Shown: positions 2,524 to 11,026, counted from the first letter of the stretch. The stretch is 64,000 bases of DNA from an uncultured Gammaproteobacteria bacterium (GCA_964609095.1 CAZSQN010000001.1:278117-342116); one strand, 5' to 3'. Notes: generated from the sequence alone by a model not told the origin. A program made the numbers and translations.

Positions 2524-2712
2524 TCAACGCGTTATGAGTTTTTCCACGCCCAGCGCGAGTAGGTAATCCAAAACGCCAAAAAATATCGCCACTCCCAAAC
2601 TGATGCCGATAACAAGCAGGGTATGATTGGCTGCTTCGCGCCGCGTGGGCCAAGTGACTTTTTTAAGCTCCGTTTTTGATTCTTTAAAGTAATTAACCAA
2701 TTTATTAAACAT
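2524..2712 (-). CDS. secE: Preprotein translocase subunit SecE
   Basis: A short protein with a single C-terminal TM helix (TLLVIGISLGVAIFFGVLDYLLAL), immediately upstream of nusG. The start was set to the internal Met (MFNKLVNYFKESK). Confidence 0.8.
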   Translation of the reverse strand: MFNKLVNYFKESKTELKKVTWPTRREAANHTLLVIGISLGVAIFFGVLDYLLALGVEKLITR

Positions 2713-2915
2713 ATAACTTGAAGCATGAAGCATGTTGTTTGAAGCCGTAAAAATGTTTCAGGCCTCGTGTTTCACGTTTCATGAGGTCTTGGTTTTTAAA
2801 AGACCCCGGGCGGGGTCAAATATTCATTTATATTAAAACTATACACCCATGTTGACCGCCTGTCAAGGGCATTGTAAGATAGCCGCAGTTCCTATAAAAA
2901 ATAAAGGAGATACAG

Positions 2916-3407
2916 ATGAAGTATGTGTTGGGTATGGCGGCCGTTATTTTATTTTCTTTTTCTCTGTCGCTGGCTGATGAACCGCCGGTAAGCAGATATG
3001 CCGGGGTGTGCGCCAGACGCTGCCGGAGCAGAACGAATTCCATAATTGACGCCACGGTTGTCCATACGGTTTTAAGGAAACGTACGCGCGAAAAAGTATA
3101 CCTTTTAAGCACGGGTAATTCTGAAGTAAACGCGCCGGCAGTTGTCTGCGGGTGCGAATCGCGCTTAGTGCGGCATCGCACTCGCGCCGACCGCGAGAAT
3201 ACTGCCCTTCTTGCGCGCGAATGCAACGATCTTTGCCGCGCCGGTACGCGCCTTTACCCCGACGTTTTAATTGTCAGTCCTGACGGCAGCGAGCACAGAG
3301 AAAGTGTCGGAATTCTGCAGTACGAATCGCCGATCGCCTGTTTGTGTACCGGCATTCCGGTGGATGTCCTACCGCCGGTTCCGCCCAGGCGGCATCCGGA
3401 GAGATAA
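2916..3407 (+). CDS. Secreted Cys-rich repeat protein (two internal repeats), hypothetical
   Basis: It has a strong SD (aaaggagatacagATG), a signal peptide, and a C-x3-C...DGSE-H...SP-x2-C-x-C repeat unit. It lies in a local GC-rich islet. Confidence 0.6.
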   Translation: MKYVLGMAAVILFSFSLSLADEPPVSRYAGVCARRCRSRTNSIIDATVVHTVLRKRTREKVYLLSTGNSEVNAPAVVCGCESRLVRHRTRADRENTALLARECNDLCRAGTRLYPDVLIVSPDGSEHRESVGILQYESPIACLCTGIPVDVLPPVPPRRHPER

Positions 3408-3408
3408 G

Positions 3409-3624
3409 ATGCGTTTTCTCGCCGCCATTGGGTTTGTTTTGATTTTTTGCGGTTGCGGAGCCGCGGTTACGCGTCAAGAGTACCGTTCCTGGAGAAGCGT
3501 TTGCGCCGCCGAGTGCCGCGACAGCCCGCGCGATGTGTGCATTTTGGAGCAGGACGGAAGCGAGTCCCATACCAGAATCGCCATCATTACTATTTCTCCT
3601 CCTTATGTTTGCAGATGCGAATGA
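3409..3624 (+). CDS. Cys-rich lipoprotein, paralogue of the C-terminal repeat of the upstream gene
   Basis: The ATG lies 2 nt after the upstream stop. It has a lipobox-like LIFCGC motif, and DVCILEQDGSESHTRIAIITISPPYVCRC aligns with DVLIVSPDGSEHRESVGILQYESPIACLC of the upstream protein. Confidence 0.55.
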   Translation: MRFLAAIGFVLIFCGCGAAVTRQEYRSWRSVCAAECRDSPRDVCILEQDGSESHTRIAIITISPPYVCRCE

Positions 3625-3628
3625 AATT

Positions 3629-3656
3629 GACCCCGACGAAGTAGTCGGGGTTTTTC
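3629..3656 (+). terminator. Rho-independent terminator
   Basis: The sequence is gaccccgacgaagtagtcggggttttt: a GC hairpin followed by a T-run. Confidence 0.7.
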
Positions 3657-3730
3657 TTTCCACAGTATTAATTTGCCAGCAAGCACATATTGTATTAAAA
3701 TTTTAACGCCATAAGCAAACGGAGAAAAAC

Positions 3731-4525
3731 ATGAAACAATATTTGGACACCTTGCGGCTCATTTTGGAGCAGGGAAACAAGCGCGGCGACCGCACCGGCG
3801 TCGGCACTATTAGTTATTTTGGTCCACAGATGCGGTTTGACCTTTCGGAAGGATTCCCAATTATTACGACCAAGAAAGTCGCGATGCGCCTTGTGATTGA
3901 GGAGCTCCTCTGGATGCTCCGCGGTGAAACCAATGTGAAACCGCTTCAAGAAAAAAATGTCCATATTTGGGATGAGTGGGCAGACGAAAATGGGGAGCTT
4001 GGTCCTGTTTACGGAGCCCAGTGGCGAAGTTGGCCATGCATTGATGGACGCAAGATTGATCAAATCTCCGATGTTGTCAGCCGCATCAAAAGCAAACCCA
4101 CTGACAGACGGCTGATTGTTTGCGCTTGGAATGTGGAGCACATTCCGCAAATGAAGCTTCCGCCTTGCCATGCGTTCTTCCAGTTTTACGTTGCCGATGG
4201 CAAGCTCTCCTTAAAGCTCTACCAGCGGAGCGCGGATATGTTCCTTGGTGTGCCCTTTAACATTTCTTCTTACGCGCTTCTTACCATGATGGTGGCGCAG
4301 GTTACGGGACTCGCGCCTGGCGAATTCGTGCACACTTTCGGCGATGCGCATGTTTACCTGAATCATTTGGAGCAGGTTAATCTTCAGCTCTCGCGCGAGC
4401 CGCGGTCTTTGCCGCAGATGAAAATCAATCCGGAGGTAAAAGATATTTTCGGATTTAAGACCGAGGACTTTGAGCTTACGGGCTACGACCCGTATCCCGC
4501 AATCAAAGCGGAGGTGGCGGTATGA
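3731..4525 (+). CDS. thyA: Thymidylate synthase
   Basis: The 264-aa protein has canonical ThyA motifs, including the catalytic Cys region ([12 protein letters not shown]). Confidence 0.95.
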
Positions 4526-5007
4526 TTTACATTATCGCGGCAATGGGCAGAAACCGCGTGATTGGCAAGGACGGCAAATTGCCTTGGCGCCTGCCGGCTG
4601 ACCTCAAGCATTTTAAGGAAATGACGACCAACAATACGGTGGTCATGGGACGGAGGACTTATGAGTCCATTGGCAGACGATTGCCCGATAGGAGAAATAT
4701 TGTCATCAGCACGCGAAAAGATTTAATCGCGCCGGGCTGTTTGGTTGTACCGAGTTTTGAAGCCGCGCTTGCTAACATCTTTCCGGCAGAGATTGCTTTT
4801 TGCATCGGAGGCAGCCGCGTTTACCAAGACGCTCTGCCTTTGGCCGAGAAGATGTACCTTACGGAAATTGACGCGGAATTTGACGGCGATGTTTTTTTCC
4901 CGGAGTTTAATTACGATGAGTGGAAGGAAGTAAGCCGGGAGCCACACGAGCCGGACGAGAAAAATCCTCACGCGTATGATTTTGTTGTTTACGAAAGGAG
5001 AGAGTGA
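4522..5007 (+). CDS. folA: Dihydrofolate reductase
   Basis: The start overlaps the thyA stop in an ATGA overlap. The N-terminus [32 protein letters not shown] is typical DHFR. Confidence 0.93.
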
Positions 5008-5174
5008 TGTCAATTTGCGATAGGACTTTCGGCATCAGCGTTGTTTGCAAGCATTGCGGCGGAAGAATGATTGTTCATAAATGCTTTAGGCACAATCCGA
5101 AAATTCCCGCAAAATGCCCTCATTGCGGCAAGAGGAATTGGGTCAAGCTCAAGAAAAAGCAAAACCGAGCTTAA
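5007..5174 (+). CDS. Small zinc-ribbon protein (55 aa, two CxxC pairs)
   Basis: Its ATG overlaps the folA stop (TGATG). Translation is [55 protein letters not shown], and a terminator follows. It is below the 60-aa cut-off of the ORF track. Confidence 0.5.
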   Translation: MSICDRTFGISVVCKHCGGRMIVHKCFRHNPKIPAKCPHCGKRNWVKLKKKQNRA

Positions 5175-5185
5175 TCGCTCGGCCT

Positions 5186-5225
5186 GCCCCGCATAGAGCC
5201 ATGCTCTTGTGCGGGGCTCTTTTTA
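5186..5225 (+). terminator. Rho-independent terminator
   Basis: The sequence is gccccgca...tgcggggc followed by ctcttttt. Confidence 0.7.
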
Positions 5226-5284
5226 TGAAGTGTTGTTATATATCCCGCTAACATTGCATACCATGGATAATGGGATAGGGCCGC

Positions 5285-5340
5285 TTGACATTGAGTAGAG
5301 ATTATGTTAATCTTTTTCTGCCCTTTTAAAACCGAAAGGA
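5285..5340 (+). promoter_or_regulatory. Sigma70-like promoter (TTGACA-17-TAATCT) plus conserved 5'UTR/SD module, copy 1
   Basis: -35 TTGACA is at 5285-5290 and -10 TAATCT at 5308-5313. It is followed by tttttctgcccttttaaaaccgaaaggaag, which is about 90% identical to the module at 5950-6008. Confidence 0.6.
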
Positions 5341-5348
5341 AGTGTGCG

Positions 5349-5687
5349 ATGCTCAAGTCCACTAAGGCTTTGGTAAAGGCACTGGTGCGGTGGTTGCTTA
5401 TTGTGATTTGCGGCACTGTTTTGGTGGTTGTCGGCGGCGGTTACCTTTTTACTCCGCGCATTGACGCACATCTGCCGTTGCGTACGGCAGAAACCTTTGG
5501 CTATACCGACCCGGGATTTGTTGCGGGAGGAAGTTTCGGGTCTGCGTATTCCGGCTGTGGCGCTGGTGAGGCCGCCTTTGACATGAGGGCAACTAATCCG
5601 GCAGGCAGGCGTGTTACTGTTCTTGCTTGTTGCCGTTCCGGCGGATGGCTGGTCGGACAGGCATCTTGCGAAATCAGAGGTAAGTAA
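5349..5687 (+). CDS. Small membrane-anchored protein, hypothetical (112 aa)
   Basis: The SD aaaggaag precedes the ATG at 5349. The N-terminal TM helix is LLIVICGTVLVVVGGGYLF. The longer ORF-track start is just a translation of the leader. Confidence 0.55.
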   Translation: MLKSTKALVKALVRWLLIVICGTVLVVVGGGYLFTPRIDAHLPLRTAETFGYTDPGFVAGGSFGSAYSGCGAGEAAFDMRATNPAGRRVTVLACCRSGGWLVGQASCEIRGK

Positions 5688-5694
5688 TTTTTAA

Positions 5695-5727
5695 AACCGA
5701 GTCTCTAAAGGCTCGGTTCTTTTTTTA
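5695..5727 (+). terminator. Rho-independent terminator, copy 1 of a duplicated terminator
   Basis: The sequence is aaccgagtctctaaaggctcggttcttttttt. The same hairpin recurs at 6546-6574. Confidence 0.75.
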
Positions 5728-5839
5728 CTTGGAGGTGAGGGGATTTGCACCCCCAGGATCATGAATGGTAAGTCAGATCCCGCACTACACCACCCCCAAG
5801 CTTGGATAGTGTAGCATAATTTTGCCCACATGCAATAAA

Positions 5840-5946
5840 TTGACAAAAATCAGTTGTTGTGTTATCTTCATAATAGATGGTAAGTCAGATCCGTACTACA
5901 TAGGATCCGCGCAAAACCGTTCTGAAAGGGGCGGTTTTGCTTTTGG
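5840..5946 (+). ncRNA. Candidate small RNA transcription unit (promoter to terminator)
   Basis: -35 TTGACA is at 5840-5845 with a -10 region at about 5863-5873. A roughly 65-nt body contains the motif ATGGTAAGTCAGATCC-N3-ACTACA, also present at 5764-5790. A terminator follows: gcaaaaccg...cggttttgc then ttttgg. Confidence 0.4.
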
Positions 5947-5949
5947 TCT

Positions 5950-6008
5950 ATGACAGATTGTAAAAATTTTGTTAATCTCTTTTTGCTCTTTAAAAACCGA
6001 AAGGAGAA
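5950..6008 (+). promoter_or_regulatory. Promoter (ATGACA-17-TAATCT) plus conserved 5'UTR/SD module, copy 2
   Basis: -10 TAATCT is at 5973-5978, followed by ctttttgctctttaaaaaccgaaaggagaaag. Confidence 0.6.
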
Positions 6009-6013
6009 AGCCG

Positions 6014-6250
6014 ATGATTGAGCAGATCGGAATTTTCAGCGCAAACGCGACTGAGACCGCTTGGGGAGGGTTTCAAGATATTGTCAACGATTTTTTGGCG
6101 AAGAAAAATAACGACGGCGAATATAAGCAAATCTCGCGCGTCTTCCAAAACGTTGATGACGACGGTTATGTCATCCTCACTATCTTTTACCAATGGGTGA
6201 AAGGGCCGCCGAATCTGGGCCCGTTCCGCACCGCGCCGGGAGGGGAGTAG
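6014..6250 (+). CDS. Small hypothetical protein (78 aa)
   Basis: The SD aaaggagaaag precedes the ATG at 6014, giving MIEQIGIFSANATETAWGGFQDIVNDFL... Confidence 0.55.
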   Translation: MIEQIGIFSANATETAWGGFQDIVNDFLAKKNNDGEYKQISRVFQNVDDDGYVILTIFYQWVKGPPNLGPFRTAPGGE

Positions 6251-6252
6251 AA

Positions 6253-6534
6253 ATGCTCAAAAAGTCGTTTCTGCTTTTTTTGCGGCTTGTTGCCGCGGCG
6301 ATTGTCCTTACCCCGGCAGTTTTTCTGCTCTTTTGCATGGGTCTTGTGGTATATGACCTTTTTGCATATGGCTGGCAGCTGCCGCCTTTCCAGTACGGCA
6401 GAACAGAAGTTGTCTGTTATGGCGCAGGCGCAATACTTTGGATAGGAGCCGGCACCATCTTGCTTGTAATGAGCCCTCTCATCCTCGGAAAACTTTTTCC
6501 TTCTCTTGAAGGCAAAAAAGAAGGGGACAAGTAA
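6253..6534 (+). CDS. Small membrane protein (93 aa, 2-3 TM)
   Basis: The SD ggagggga precedes the ATG at 6253, 2 nt after the upstream stop. Translation is MLKKSFLLFLRLVAAAIVLTPAVFLLFCMGLVVYDLF... Confidence 0.55.
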   Translation: MLKKSFLLFLRLVAAAIVLTPAVFLLFCMGLVVYDLFAYGWQLPPFQYGRTEVVCYGAGAILWIGAGTILLVMSPLILGKLFPSLEGKKEGDK

Positions 6535-6545
6535 AGTGTTCAAAA

Positions 6546-6574
6546 AACCGAGTCTTTAAAGGCTCGGTTCTTTA
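6546..6574 (+). terminator. Rho-independent terminator, copy 2
   Basis: The sequence is aaccgagtctttaaaggctcggttcttta. Confidence 0.7.
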
Positions 6575-6596
6575 TATATTTAAATTTTTTAAATAT

Positions 6597-8790
<2,194 letters not shown>

Positions 8791-9736: not shown

Positions 9737-11026
9737 GTGGCGGCGGAAAAACACATTATCAAAAATTTTAAATCGCTGGCAAAAAGCGCTTTGCGCCGCG
9801 ACGCTCTGTCCATACTTGAGGCCGGAATTAGGGCGGCCAACCCGAGAAATGGAATTGCCCGCTTGGTAAAGAAGCGCGGCGATTTTATCTTTTTTGGAAA
9901 TAAAAAAATAAATCGGAAAAATTACGACCATATTTACGTGATAGGCATTGGCAAGGCCTCGGCAGCGGCCGCTTCTGAACTTGAACGATTGCTTGGCGAA
10001 GATATCGCCGGAGGCGTTGTCTTGGACGTTAAAAAGGTAAAATTGCGGCGCGTCAAAAGTATAGCCGGCACGCATCCTCTGCCGTCGCTTGTAAATATGA
10101 GAGCGACCGGCGAGATTATGGCTTTGCTTAAAAATATAGATTCGCGCGATTTGGTTATAGCCATAATTTCCGGAGGCGGCTCCGCGCTCCTATGCTGGCC
10201 TTATGACATAAAATGCAATGAGCTCTCGGCCATAAGCAAAGTATTAATGAAGAAAGGCGCGACAATCCGCGAGATAAACACCGTCAGGAAGCACCTTTCG
10301 GAAATTCAGGGAGGACAGTTTGCGCGCCTTGCGTATCCGGCAACGGTTGTAGGCCTTATTTTTTCTGACATTCCCGGAAACGATCTGGGCCTTGTCGCTT
10401 CCGGACCCACGGTAAGAGACGCCACGACCGTCACGGATGCCGCACATGTGTTGGCAAAGTATAATGTTCTAAAATCTTGTTCCATAAAAGGATGCGACCT
10501 TAAAGAAACGCCCAAGGACCCTCTTTATTTCAAGAAGGTGACAAATATGCTCGCGGGCAGCAATCTGGATTCGGTCAAAGCCATGGCGGAAGAAGCAAAG
10601 AAGCGCGGCTGGCGGGTGCGCGTTCTTTCCGTAAAAATGTTCGGCGAAGCCGCTAAGGCGGGCAAGATGCTTGCCGACGCGCCAAAGGAAGGCGAGGCCG
10701 TTATAGCGGCCGGGGAAACGACCGTGACGGTTAAAGGAAAAGGCAAAGGCGGGCGCAATCAGGAGCTGGCGCTTTCTTCGCTTCTTCATTTGAGAAAAGG
10801 CGGTTTGGTTATCTCTCTTGCTTCTGACGGCATAGACAATAGCGAAGCGGCCGGCGGAATTGCCGACGAATTGACGCTTAAATCGGCGGCCAAAGCGGGA
10901 ATCAATCCGAAAAGATATTTAACTGACAACGATTCAAATTCTTTTTTTAAGAAATTGCGCCAGGCGATTATAACGGGCCCCACGGGCGCCAATGTTTCCG
11001 ACATTATCGTGTCTTTGCGAAGATGA
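9737..11026 (+). CDS. Glycerate kinase (MOFRL family, GckA/TtuD-like)
   Basis: The 429-aa protein has DUF4147-like and MOFRL-like regions (IISGGGSALL, GKGGRNQELALS). The start is a GTG. Confidence 0.7.
   Translation: MAAEKHIIKNFKSLAKSALRRDALSILEAGIRAANPRNGIARLVKKRGDFIFFGNKKINRKNYDHIYVIGIGKASAAAASELERLLGEDIAGGVVLDVKKVKLRRVKSIAGTHPLPSLVNMRATGEIMALLKNIDSRDLVIAIISGGGSALLCWPYDIKCNELSAISKVLMKKGATIREINTVRKHLSEIQGGQFARLAYPATVVGLIFSDIPGNDLGLVASGPTVRDATTVTDAAHVLAKYNVLKSCSIKGCDLKETPKDPLYFKKVTNMLAGSNLDSVKAMAEEAKKRGWRVRVLSVKMFGEAAKAGKMLADAPKEGEAVIAAGETTVTVKGKGKGGRNQELALSSLLHLRKGGLVISLASDGIDNSEAAGGIADELTLKSAAKAGINPKRYLTDNDSNSFFKKLRQAIITGPTGANVSDIIVSLRR

Follow-up and report, generated by a model that had tools for sequence, protein, structure and literature searches.

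What is kept and what is exchanged between folA and gyrB of a bacterium of the candidate phyla radiation (CPR), where two copies of one promoter, leader and terminator enclose small-protein genes that do not resemble one another and an RNA locus lies between them? The stretch of DNA analysed here, called the window throughout, is 64,000 nucleotides (nt) long and was assigned to Candidatus Uhrbacteria bacterium GCA_016181485.1 (contig JACOZF010000007.1). In our reading, to which we give a probability of about 0.6, the modules in the folA-gyrB gap represent, in duplicate, the regulatory frame that belongs to a small-protein operon specific to the lineage, and the RNA locus forms a two-RNA unit independent of it. 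Of the two, the RNA pair is the more important and the more remarkable element of the locus. Its features, in window coordinates, are as follows.

5730-5797, minus strand: homologue of transfer-messenger RNA (tmRNA) consisting of the tRNA-like domain (TLD) only, 68 nt, recognised from an Rfam match to the two ends only, its fold and its homologues.
5798-5846, minus strand: promoter-like region of the TLD, with the candidates TTGTCA-16-CAAAAT (5846 to 5819; 9/12 in the consensus scan) or TTGCAT-16-TACACT (by eye).
5840-5868, plus strand: putative promoter of the small RNA (sRNA), TTGACA-17-TATCTT with a TG motif (10/12 in the scan), which aligns with TTGACG-17-TACTCT of contig L052.
5875-5946, plus strand: anti-TLD sRNA, about 70 nt, with a single-stranded 5′ seed AUGGUAAGUCA, a small hairpin GAUCC/GGAUC and a terminator of 13 base pairs (bp) at 5911-5940.

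Read from 5797 to 5730, the TLD has the sequence GGGGGUG-GUGUAGUGCG-GGAUC-UGACUUACCAUUCAU-GAUCC-U-GGGGG-UGCAAAU-CCCCU-CACCUCC-A. Its termini form a 7-bp acceptor stem, GGGGGUG/CACCUCC, with G3:U70 and the discriminator A, and the T arm is GGGGG-UGCAAAU-CCCCU. The interior holds a D-loop analogue of 9-10 nt and a helix of 5-6 bp capped by a 15-nt loop, there being 36 nt between the 5′ strand of the acceptor and the T arm, with neither a tag reading frame nor an encoded CCA. The predicted fold has an energy of −30.4 kcal/mol (z −2.35). The Rfam tmRNA model (RF00023) matched with its two ends only (expectation value, E, 0.024; 12.1 bits against a gathering threshold of 47), and the 21-mer GGTGCAAATCCCCTCACCTCC recurs unchanged in the permuted tmRNAs of 31 viral contigs, where it makes up the T arm and the 3′ acceptor strand and where the 5′ pieces likewise start with GGGGGTG. 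Both ends of a tmRNA are present and there is no room for a tag, therefore the gene is a lone tRNA-like domain of tmRNA, devoid of the mRNA-like domain with its resume codon, tag frame, stop and pseudoknots. Other TLD-only homologues do score as tmRNA in Rfam, namely that of contig L020 (27.5 bits, E 9e-8) and the element of mycobacteriophage DS6A, which we located at JN698994 28478-28560 (43.2 bits, E 6.5e-14) and which has the same architecture. The architecture of the window TLD could be aligned with those of DS6A, L020 and L052; relative to L020, both sides of the middle helix have changed in 5 of 6 pairs.

Other identities were considered for this RNA. With default settings ARAGORN found no tRNA and no tmRNA at the TLD, and with relaxed settings a 'tRNA-???' at 5730-5794 having a 2-nt anticodon; the Rfam tRNA model gave no match to it. 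A canonical tRNA was rejected on these grounds and for want of a cloverleaf with a D arm and a 7-nt anticodon loop. A permuted two-piece tmRNA (compare L012 and L016) was rejected since the 5′ strand precedes the 3′ strand on one 68-nt stretch, and a tRNA integration site with a displaced 5′ fragment was also considered and rejected. A pattern specific for the TLD had 0 matches in the viral contigs. In L020 (IMGVR_UViG_3300002460_000081; 10573-10753, minus strand) the TLD-only homologue has an encoded CCA and lies 9 nt upstream of a tRNA-like gene with the anticodon loop CUUGGGU and a variable-region insert of about 30 nt; ARAGORN calls neither of the two. Also, in the 31 viral contigs (L012-L042) the acceptor piece of the permuted tmRNA, …GGACAGGGGTGCAAATCCCCTCACCTCCACCA, is followed directly past the CCA by differing sequences, which would look like what is expected of prophage junctions at a tmRNA 3′ end.

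We predict the sRNA to be a trans-acting antisense RNA of the TLD, as it appears to have its own promoter and terminator, a complementarity to the target beyond chance, and covariation with it. Nucleotides 5877-5900 are complementary to nucleotides 9-33 of the TLD (25 nt), a match that was also detected as a repeat, and in the 5′ part, AUGGUAAGUCAGAUCC-GUACUACA, the deviations amount to one bulge and one G·U pair. The predicted duplex has an energy of −48.2 kcal/mol (z −7.7 against shuffles). Nowhere else in the window does the sRNA have so good a target as the TLD; the tiles of the window have a mean of −13.5 and a standard deviation of 4.3, and the best duplex on the mRNAs of the two modules, at −23.7 kcal/mol, equals background. 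The sRNA itself folds with z −3.45. The candidate −35 box of the TLD overlaps that of the divergent sRNA back to back (5840-5846). The core pattern of the sRNA and TLD had 0 matches in the viral contigs.

A genome-wide scan with the pattern GGGGGTG-N20-50-T arm/acceptor returned a single further match, in Parcubacteria group bacterium GW2011_GWA2_47_26 (L052, 3956-4022). This TLD shares the ends and the linker UAGUGC but has a 17-nt loop of another sequence, GGAGCUUGUCAACUCUA. An sRNA gene colinear with that of the window (TTGACG-17-TACTCT, AAUAG, seed, hairpin, terminator) follows on the same strand after about 65 nt, and its seed AGUUGACAAGCUCC... is complementary to the loop and linker of its own TLD over 29 nt, with one bulge and two G·U-compatible changes. 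The duplex reaches −54.8 kcal/mol (z −8.5 against shuffles). On exchanging the partners between the genomes the pairs reach −27.5 and −32.9 kcal/mol, as against −48.2 and −54.8 for the cognate ones, and all substitutions inside the duplexes (3 of 3) are G·U-compatible. The gene order is divergent in the window and tandem in L052, and the RNAs are complementary in both. We could establish in this way, at the level of sequence, the homology to tmRNA ends, the complementarity and the co-variation in a second CPR genome. L052 lacks the small-protein modules, and as the complementarity is kept there, the pair is an independent, co-evolving two-RNA unit. It was not found in the three contigs with the frame that reach past it (L060-L062), and was therefore probably inserted between the two frame copies. 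In L052 a minus-strand site at 4069-4096, TTGTCA-16-CATAAT (10/12), lies inside the seed region of the sRNA and points to the TLD gene; it could give a cis-antisense transcript of the TLD.

What the pair does can be suggested only tentatively. The TLD RNA would be matured like a tRNA, by RNase P and then by CCA addition, would be charged by alanyl-tRNA synthetase (AlaRS) through G3:U70 and bind SmpB, and once charged may compete with or replace full-length tmRNA. The free 5′ end of the sRNA would attack the TLD loop of 15-17 nt, and the pairing would go on to take in the helix's 5′ strand and the D-loop analogue; this may shut the TLD off by unfolding its SmpB-binding face, abolishing the tRNA-like shape and making a substrate for RNase III. 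The back-to-back overlapping −35 boxes in the window would allow a switch. The pair would then be an all-RNA switch on ribosome rescue, in which the mini-tmRNA binds SmpB and either blocks trans-translation or carries out a tag-less form of it and the antisense RNA neutralises it, as a toxin/antidote or a regulatory pair; we regard this as a possibility with the odds clearly against it. It would be carried by ultra-small CPR bacteria on their chromosomes, possibly as an addiction or anti-phage element, here inside a hyper-variable islet of small genes.

Among the competing explanations, the one that survives best, itself unlikely, takes the TLD for a lifeless relic, left by an internal deletion of ssrA or by an integration event, and the sRNA for a neutral partial duplicate of it. 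It is known that tmRNA genes are common integration sites and that fragments of them occur (PMC4131195); the apparent prophage junctions at the tmRNA ends of the 31 viral contigs, the position of the pair in a variable spot and the CCA not being encoded also agree with decay. Yet two genomes, with unrelated surroundings of the gene, have retained both ends, G3:U70 and a closed middle helix, two-sided changes relative to L020 (the 5 of 6 pairs given above) preserve this helix, and the complementarity survives different loops and a changed relative orientation of the genes. The promoter, hairpin and terminator of the partner sRNA align between the genomes as well, and the nearest relative sharing this synteny lacks an ssrA at the site. 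We retain a maintained RNA pair as the preferred reading and turn to the frame around it.

4522-5007: folA, the upstream boundary of the region.
5004-5174, plus strand: zinc-ribbon gene of 55-56 amino acids (aa), CxxC...CxxC, overlapping the folA stop; taken from the list of open reading frames (ORFs), with weak Zn_ribbon Pfam matches.
5161-5182, plus strand: hairpin A0, AAAACCGAGCTTAATCGCTCGG, of the module-terminator family, with the zinc-ribbon stop codon in its loop; the same in L060.
5186-5224, plus strand: hairpin B, GCCCCGCA...TGCGGGGC with a T run, a strong intrinsic terminator closing the folA/zinc-ribbon unit.
5285-5313, plus strand: putative module 1 promoter, TTGACA (5285-5290), 17 nt and TGT-TAATCT (−10 at 5308-5313), from sequence, repeat and conservation.
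5314-5348, plus strand: module 1 leader, with U-rich CCCUUUU, loop AAAACCG and Shine-Dalgarno (SD) sequence AAAGGAAG, and a weak predicted SD-occluding hairpin.
5349-5687, plus strand: ORF1, 112 aa, with an N-terminal membrane anchor (hydrophobic 6-36) and a Cys-containing C-terminal part; orphan.
5693-5727, both strands: terminator A1, which ends ORF1 on the plus strand and lies 12 nt past the tRNA-like RNA on the minus strand; minus-strand reading AACCGAGCC..CTCGGTTTT.
5950-5978, plus strand: putative module 2 promoter, ATGACA (5950-5955), 17 nt and TGT-TAATCT (−10 at 5973-5978).
5979-6013, plus strand: module 2 leader, with CUCUUU, loop AAAAACCGA and SD AAGGAG.
6014-6250, plus strand: ORF2a, 78 aa, soluble, no hydrophobic segment, beta-alpha-beta-beta; the recurrent core gene.
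6253-6534, plus strand: ORF2b, a 93-aa membrane protein with 2-3 hydrophobic segments (about 4-41 and 53-85).
6544-6576, both strands: terminator A2, common to module 2 and the convergent gyrB; the minus-strand reading is followed by TTTTTTG.
6597-8627, minus strand: gyrB, convergent, the downstream boundary of the region.

A preliminary description of the locus, made from the window alone, had reported a module present twice, having the −10 TAATCT, a conserved leader and a hairpin terminator, with unrelated cargo (a 112-aa membrane-anchored protein in one copy, a 78-aa soluble and a 93-aa membrane protein in the other) and an sRNA locus in between. All of these parts were recovered at the positions then assigned to them. 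The promoter and 5′ untranslated region (5′ UTR) form a direct repeat of 55 nt with 80% identity (5286-5340 and 5951-6005), the terminator hairpins one of 38 nt with 89% identity (5693-5730 and 6544-6581), spaced by 665 and 851 nt respectively and unique in the 64 kilobases (kb). A 36-nt consensus from the TG-extended −10 (TGTTAATCT) to the SD has 0 mismatches in both copies and no match elsewhere in the window at up to 3 mismatches (shuffle expectation 0.00), and the 24-nt hairpin AACCGAGTCTNTAAAGGCTCGGTT is confined to 5695-5718 and 6546-6569. Both hairpins score as intrinsic terminators with a 10-bp stem and a T run, and since there are T runs on the minus strand too, A1 also serves the minus-strand RNA gene and A2 serves gyrB. 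The consensus scan lists neither module promoter, because TAATCT matches TATAAT at 3 of 6 positions only; the promoters were called from a −35 box that is perfect or has 5 of 6 positions, the 17-nt spacing, the TG motif and conservation in L060, L061 and L062, the module 1 promoter having the form TTGACA-17-TAATGT in L060 and L062. The junction of the module 2 leader with ORF2a matches those of L011 (31 nt, 90%) and L062.

The 8-mer AAAACCGA occurs 5 times on the plus strand within 5161-6551 (starts 5161, 5328, 5693, 5993 and 6544), that is in both leaders and in the 5′ foot of all three A hairpins, and twice, on the minus strand only, in the remaining 62 kb. The sRNA terminator begins with a variant of it, AAAACCGT (5913). 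Upstream of the modules, the zinc-ribbon protein has a homologue with 53% identity at the same position of L060, its codon score being weak (−0.06), and the gene precedes the framed operon in both contigs that cover this position (window and L060). Hairpin B folds with −36.5 kcal/mol (z −4.9) and is 92% identical over 37 nt to L011 522-558; the L011 copy (501-560) stands behind the operon of that contig and has flanking genes different from those at 5161-5224 of the window.

Is the frame a peculiarity of this genome? The preliminary description had suggested a regulatory module reused around unrelated genes, and the copies in related genomes bore this out. Six contigs carry the frame, namely the window, L011, L051, L060, L061 and L062, with seven leader copies in total; gyrB adjoins the frame in three of the five contigs other than the window. 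Four of the five further copies were reached through the contigs of ORF2a relatives and the fifth (L051) by a leader scan of metagenomes, in which it was the single match, cut at the contig end. The other four are arranged as follows.

L060: upstream thyA, folA and a zinc ribbon with hairpin A, then TTGACA-17-TAATGT; leader as in the window; genes for a 99-aa protein, ORF2a′, a 71-aa protein and a 103-aa CxxCxGxG protein; downstream hairpin A and gyrB.
L061: contig starting at TAATCT; leader AAAACCAAAAGGAGG; genes for a 75-aa membrane protein and ORF2a; downstream hairpin A and gyrB.
L062: upstream hairpin A and a promoter; leader ACAACCAAAAGGAGG; two tandem ORF2a paralogues; downstream hairpin A.
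L011: cut at the leader; leader as in the window; ORF2a′ and an unrelated 70-aa gene; downstream hairpin A, hairpin B and an IS30-like transposase.

The first genes behind the seven leaders encode ORF1, ORF2a, the 99-aa protein, the 75-aa membrane protein or a product cut after MGRT. On comparing all proteins with one another by BLASTP, relatives were found solely for ORF2a and the zinc ribbon, and ORF1, ORF2b and the 70-, 71-, 75-, 99- and 103-aa partners stand alone. Over the stretch from −10 to SD, the leaders are 94% identical between module 1 and L060, and 89% identical both between modules 1 and 2 and between module 2 and L060, compared with 57-73% for the coding DNA of ORF2a between genomes; the leader is therefore a selected element. 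The comparison of the contigs establishes the frame as a lineage-wide regulatory element that is kept more constant than its genes, which turn over. In L011, as compared with the window, the second gene is another one; the point of exchange lies past ORF2a, within the frame, and is not the shared motif.

Some features of these contigs may be added. In L062 (103-558) two genes of the ORF2a family (80 and 69 aa, 41% identical) stand in tandem in one frame, so the family duplicates locally. The 103-aa partner in L060 (3788-4099) consists almost entirely of CxxCxGxG repeats, like a DnaJ zinc finger. Past hairpin A, the AT-rich spacers of L061 (600-700) and L062 (620-680) contain perfect inverted repeats of 8-9 nt (TTTACACT...AGTGTAAA; CTTACAACA...TGTTGTAAG). 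In the viral contigs the leader had five matches, all due to chance and with no extended similarity, hairpin A had two (a tRNA and an unrelated phage terminator) and hairpin B had 0.

The cargo itself gives few clues. ORF1 had no homologue beyond itself among 5.8e9 proteins. The ORF2a family, of 69-85 aa with the conserved motif ITRV..Q...ITIFYQWV..P.LGPFRT.P., gained one homologue from a word search and a further three when 1.8e9 representatives were scanned in full with HMMER; FG-GAP proteins matched by its profile were discarded as repeat artefacts. No relative of ORF2b exists among the cargo proteins of the six contigs, and BLASTP found no relatedness among the cargo proteins of the window (E 1.5 and 2.4). 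Coding scores in the annotated frame are 0.16 for ORF1, 0.29 for ORF2a and 0.26 for ORF2b, compared with 0.27 for folA. Searches of Pfam, PHROGs and PADLOC for a cargo function gave no match, and the AlphaFold model of ORF2a (predicted local distance difference test, pLDDT, 74) gave PDB matches that are insignificant, the best being dodecin-like with E 0.17. Small ORFs in the repeated ATGGTAAGTCAGATCC segment were rejected, as they have no SD and are not conserved.

The frame would consist of a TG-extended promoter of the sigma-70 type (TTGACA-17-TAATCT), a 5′ UTR of about 30 nt and an intrinsic terminator that works in both directions and has a conserved stem, AAAACCGAG...CTCGG. Within the 5′ UTR the U-rich CYCUUUU may pair with the SD AAAGGAG across the conserved loop AAAACCG, giving a putative SD-occluding hairpin; such pairing is possible in all seven leader copies, and the AAAACCG loop is conserved despite an unremarkable hairpin. 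The frame would put all cargo under common transcriptional and translational control, for which melting of the SD occlusion or a protein bound to the AAAACCG loop are candidate mechanisms, the adjacent zinc-ribbon protein being a candidate binder. In related genomes one frame holds ORF2a with changing partners, and in this genome the frame is present twice; module 2 keeps the canonical leader-ORF2a junction, and module 1, which is nearest to the single copy of L060, would drive the orphan ORF1. The turnover of genes probably proceeds by ordinary illegitimate or homologous recombination with no dedicated recombinase.

Upstream of folA lie secE-nusG-L11-L1 and thyA, and within ±6 kb there is no recombinase, integrase or phage gene, all neighbours being housekeeping genes. 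The region shows no anomaly of GC content, the codon usage of the cargo is host-like, and 9 contigs of the same species (NCBI, Logan) are 100% identical across 5001-6700, with no strain variation. Similar phage records for the window consist merely of chance pieces of 19-25 nt. A 281-aa protein beside gyrB, used as a query for syntenic genomes, had no relative among GTDB representatives, so the species is not among them. In L048, the closest relative with a long contig (GyrB 89% identical), thyA-folA is followed by an unrelated 77-aa gene with different signals and by gyrB, and the gap holds neither zinc ribbon nor frame nor RNA genes. L060 has the order thyA-folA-zinc ribbon-frame-gyrB and L061 likewise ends at gyrB; in L054 and L055 gyrB is directly beside secE, and in L053 other genes lie between. 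The folA-gyrB gap is a variable site, and two unrelated things are interleaved there. More widely, the stretch from secE to gyrB (window 2700-6600) varies among L048, L053, L054 and L055; in the lineage of the window it contains a 163-aa gene, a 71-aa gene, thyA, folA and small genes, and thyA-folA look like part of an inserted block because relatives with GyrB 76-77% identical have gyrB beside secE. Across the whole 64 kb ARAGORN found no tRNA gene, and Rfam at the gathering threshold no RNA family.

Several points weigh against the reading of a regulatory frame and a co-evolving RNA pair. As only two genomes carry the pair, the covariation rests on one evolutionary contrast, and either sRNA might, in principle, have arisen rather recently by local copying of its TLD. 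The strand of the L052 sRNA was assigned by alignment to the sRNA gene of the window, because the terminator is bidirectional, and its plus-strand promoter is below the scan threshold. No complementary partner RNA was found for DS6A (within 1.5 kb) or L020, and the window contains no tmRNA at the Rfam gathering threshold and no smpB by tblastn with E. coli SmpB. All promoters given here are putative calls at the consensus level, the module −10 boxes scoring below the scan threshold. Also, the leader hairpin is weak (−4.5 to −5.4 kcal/mol, z −0.3 to −0.6, like shuffles) and shows no compensatory change, just one G-to-A that turns U·G into U-A in L061 and L062.

The preliminary description had raised two further possibilities that did not hold up, a system that swaps cargo cassettes and a toxin/immunity or membrane-stress role of the small proteins together with the RNA locus; with no recombinase, no attC-like core and no antisense match of the sRNA to the small-protein mRNAs, both are unsupported. 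The first, quite unlikely in our estimate, would have site-specific recombination act at the core TTTWAAAACCGA, which lies in the leader and in the 5′ foot of the hairpin and forms direct repeats around the cargo (12 nt around ORF1, 9 nt around ORF2a-2b). The clustering of AAAACCGA (5 copies in 5161-6551 against 2 elsewhere) would suit such a system, but no integrase or recombinase is present within ±6 kb, a GTTRRRY-type core is absent and each unit has its own promoter. The cargo does vary between genomes, yet the exchange between the window and L011 bypassed the core, having occurred past ORF2a within the frame, and the leaders of L061 and L062 have AAAACCAA and ACAACCAA but the hairpin AAAACCGAG. 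Hairpin A is also found upstream of the promoter in the window, L060 and L062, and L011 adjoins an IS30-like transposase; against this, the chromosomal position is conserved and the viral contigs have no match apart from chance.

A neutral and recent segmental duplication, by which promoter and terminator were copied locally in this genome alone, would explain why only two copies, 665 and 851 nt apart, are found in the 64 kb. It is very improbable, given that five further contigs, which come from other organisms, carry this leader and hairpin too, that the module 1 leader is nearer to L060 (94%) than to module 2 (89%), and that the cargo is not paralogous.

Similarly improbable is a type I toxin-antitoxin (TA) or toxin/immunity system in which the small hydrophobic proteins are toxins under the intervening sRNA. 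ORF1 and ORF2b are indeed small membrane proteins and the sRNA gene does lie between the units, but the best duplex of the sRNA on either module mRNA stays at −23.7 kcal/mol compared with −48 on the TLD, the sRNA/TLD pair occurs in L052 where there are no such genes, and the framed operons of L060, L061 and L062 exist without sRNA and TLD. PADLOC and PHROGs matched none of the proteins, and typical type I toxins are smaller than 112 and 93 aa, which also counts against toxins here.

Least probable of all is a tmRNA split in trans, in which TLD and sRNA assemble by pairing and the sRNA supplies the tag template, for although the acceptor and T arm are those of two-piece tmRNAs and each sRNA begins with AAUAG and contains 25-26 codons of open frame (relaxed ARAGORN proposes GKSDPYYIGSAQNRSERGGFAFGL), the putative tags are not conserved and have no usual hydrophobic ...AA end, the frame runs through the 13-bp terminator to a stop beyond the predicted 3′ end and overlaps the TLD-pairing segment, and the pairing covers the D-loop analogue and would destroy the tRNA-like shape needed by SmpB.

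We return to a regulatory frame with an independent RNA pair and compare each with known systems. The frame shows that in CPR a short set of promoter, leader and terminator can stay more constant than the genes it expresses; it marks a family of small proteins that turns over fast under common control, and one 36-nt motif is the handle to find them. Like FourU-type thermometers and other SD-occluding hairpins, the leader has a CUUUU slightly upstream that can pair with the AAAGG of the SD in a short weak hairpin. It differs from them in a stability no better than that of shuffled sequence and in the conserved AAAACCG loop, a pure RNA thermometer needing no conserved loop sequence. With phage morons the modules share the layout of own promoter, SD, one or more small ORFs and intrinsic terminator amid housekeeping genes at a variable spot; unlike morons, the frame lies outside any prophage (±6 kb are free of phage genes), the cargo has no PHROG match, and the regulatory frame is itself conserved across genomes, which is not a defining trait of morons. 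Integron cassettes with attC sites resemble the locus in that imperfect hairpins of one family flank small genes of variable identity, but here there is no integrase and no R′/R″ core (GTTRRRY), the units carry promoters, and the hairpins are ordinary terminators with T runs.

For the TLD the nearest relative is DS6A (tmID 11587 of the tmRNA Website), which Hudson, Lau and Williams (2014, PMC4131195) list as 'TLD only', with little more than the TLD; citing Mao et al. 2009, they add that tmRNA is strongly inhibited by a molecule of this kind, which perhaps titrates SmpB. Both elements consist of a G3:U70 acceptor, a D-loop analogue, one short helix in place of helix 2, a T arm and nothing else, and in both the Rfam tmRNA model aligns with its two ends only. 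DS6A is a phage element, has the T loop UUCGAUU (UGCAAAU in the window) and has no complementary RNA within 1.5 kb, whereas the element of the window is chromosomal, in CPR, and has an adjacent co-varying antisense gene. In jakobid mitochondria tmRNA is reduced essentially to the tRNA-like part (Burger et al. 2013, PMC3590771). That RNA differs in being organellar and is presumed to be the sole rescue RNA there. It has no tag template, and we know of no antisense partner for it. The two-piece tmRNAs of Alphaproteobacteria and others share with the TLD an identical acceptor GGGGGUG/CACCUCC and T arm GGGGUGCAAAUCCCC (31 viral contigs); in them the 3′ piece comes before the 5′ piece and a tag frame exists, in contrast to the standard order, the 36-nt gap and the missing tag in the window. 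Until now, TLD-only homologues were oddities known from one phage and from jakobid mitochondria, with the inhibition of tmRNA as the sole functional clue.

For the pair as a whole, the known counterparts are antisense systems such as type I TA of the hok/sok type, CopA/CopT of plasmids and RNA-RNA 'type VIII' pairs such as SdsR/RyeA. As in these, the single-stranded 5′ seed of an RNA made of hairpin and terminator would meet a loop of the target and then form a duplex of 25-29 bp, and the two genes are adjacent, with overlapping promoters in the window. The target here is a tRNA-like RNA and not an mRNA, however, and the genes are separate diverged copies that do not overlap in cis. In the literature we found no TLD-only tmRNA homologue with a dedicated antisense partner, and the combination appears to be new. 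The presence in a chromosome of a TLD-only gene together with a dedicated, co-varying antisense RNA implies that cells purposefully maintain and control this kind of molecule, which makes directly testable the question whether bacteria deliberately modulate or sabotage ribosome rescue through a decoy RNA; next to the antisense systems named above, the pair could add a new kind of RNA-RNA control module or a new type of toxin-antitoxin system.

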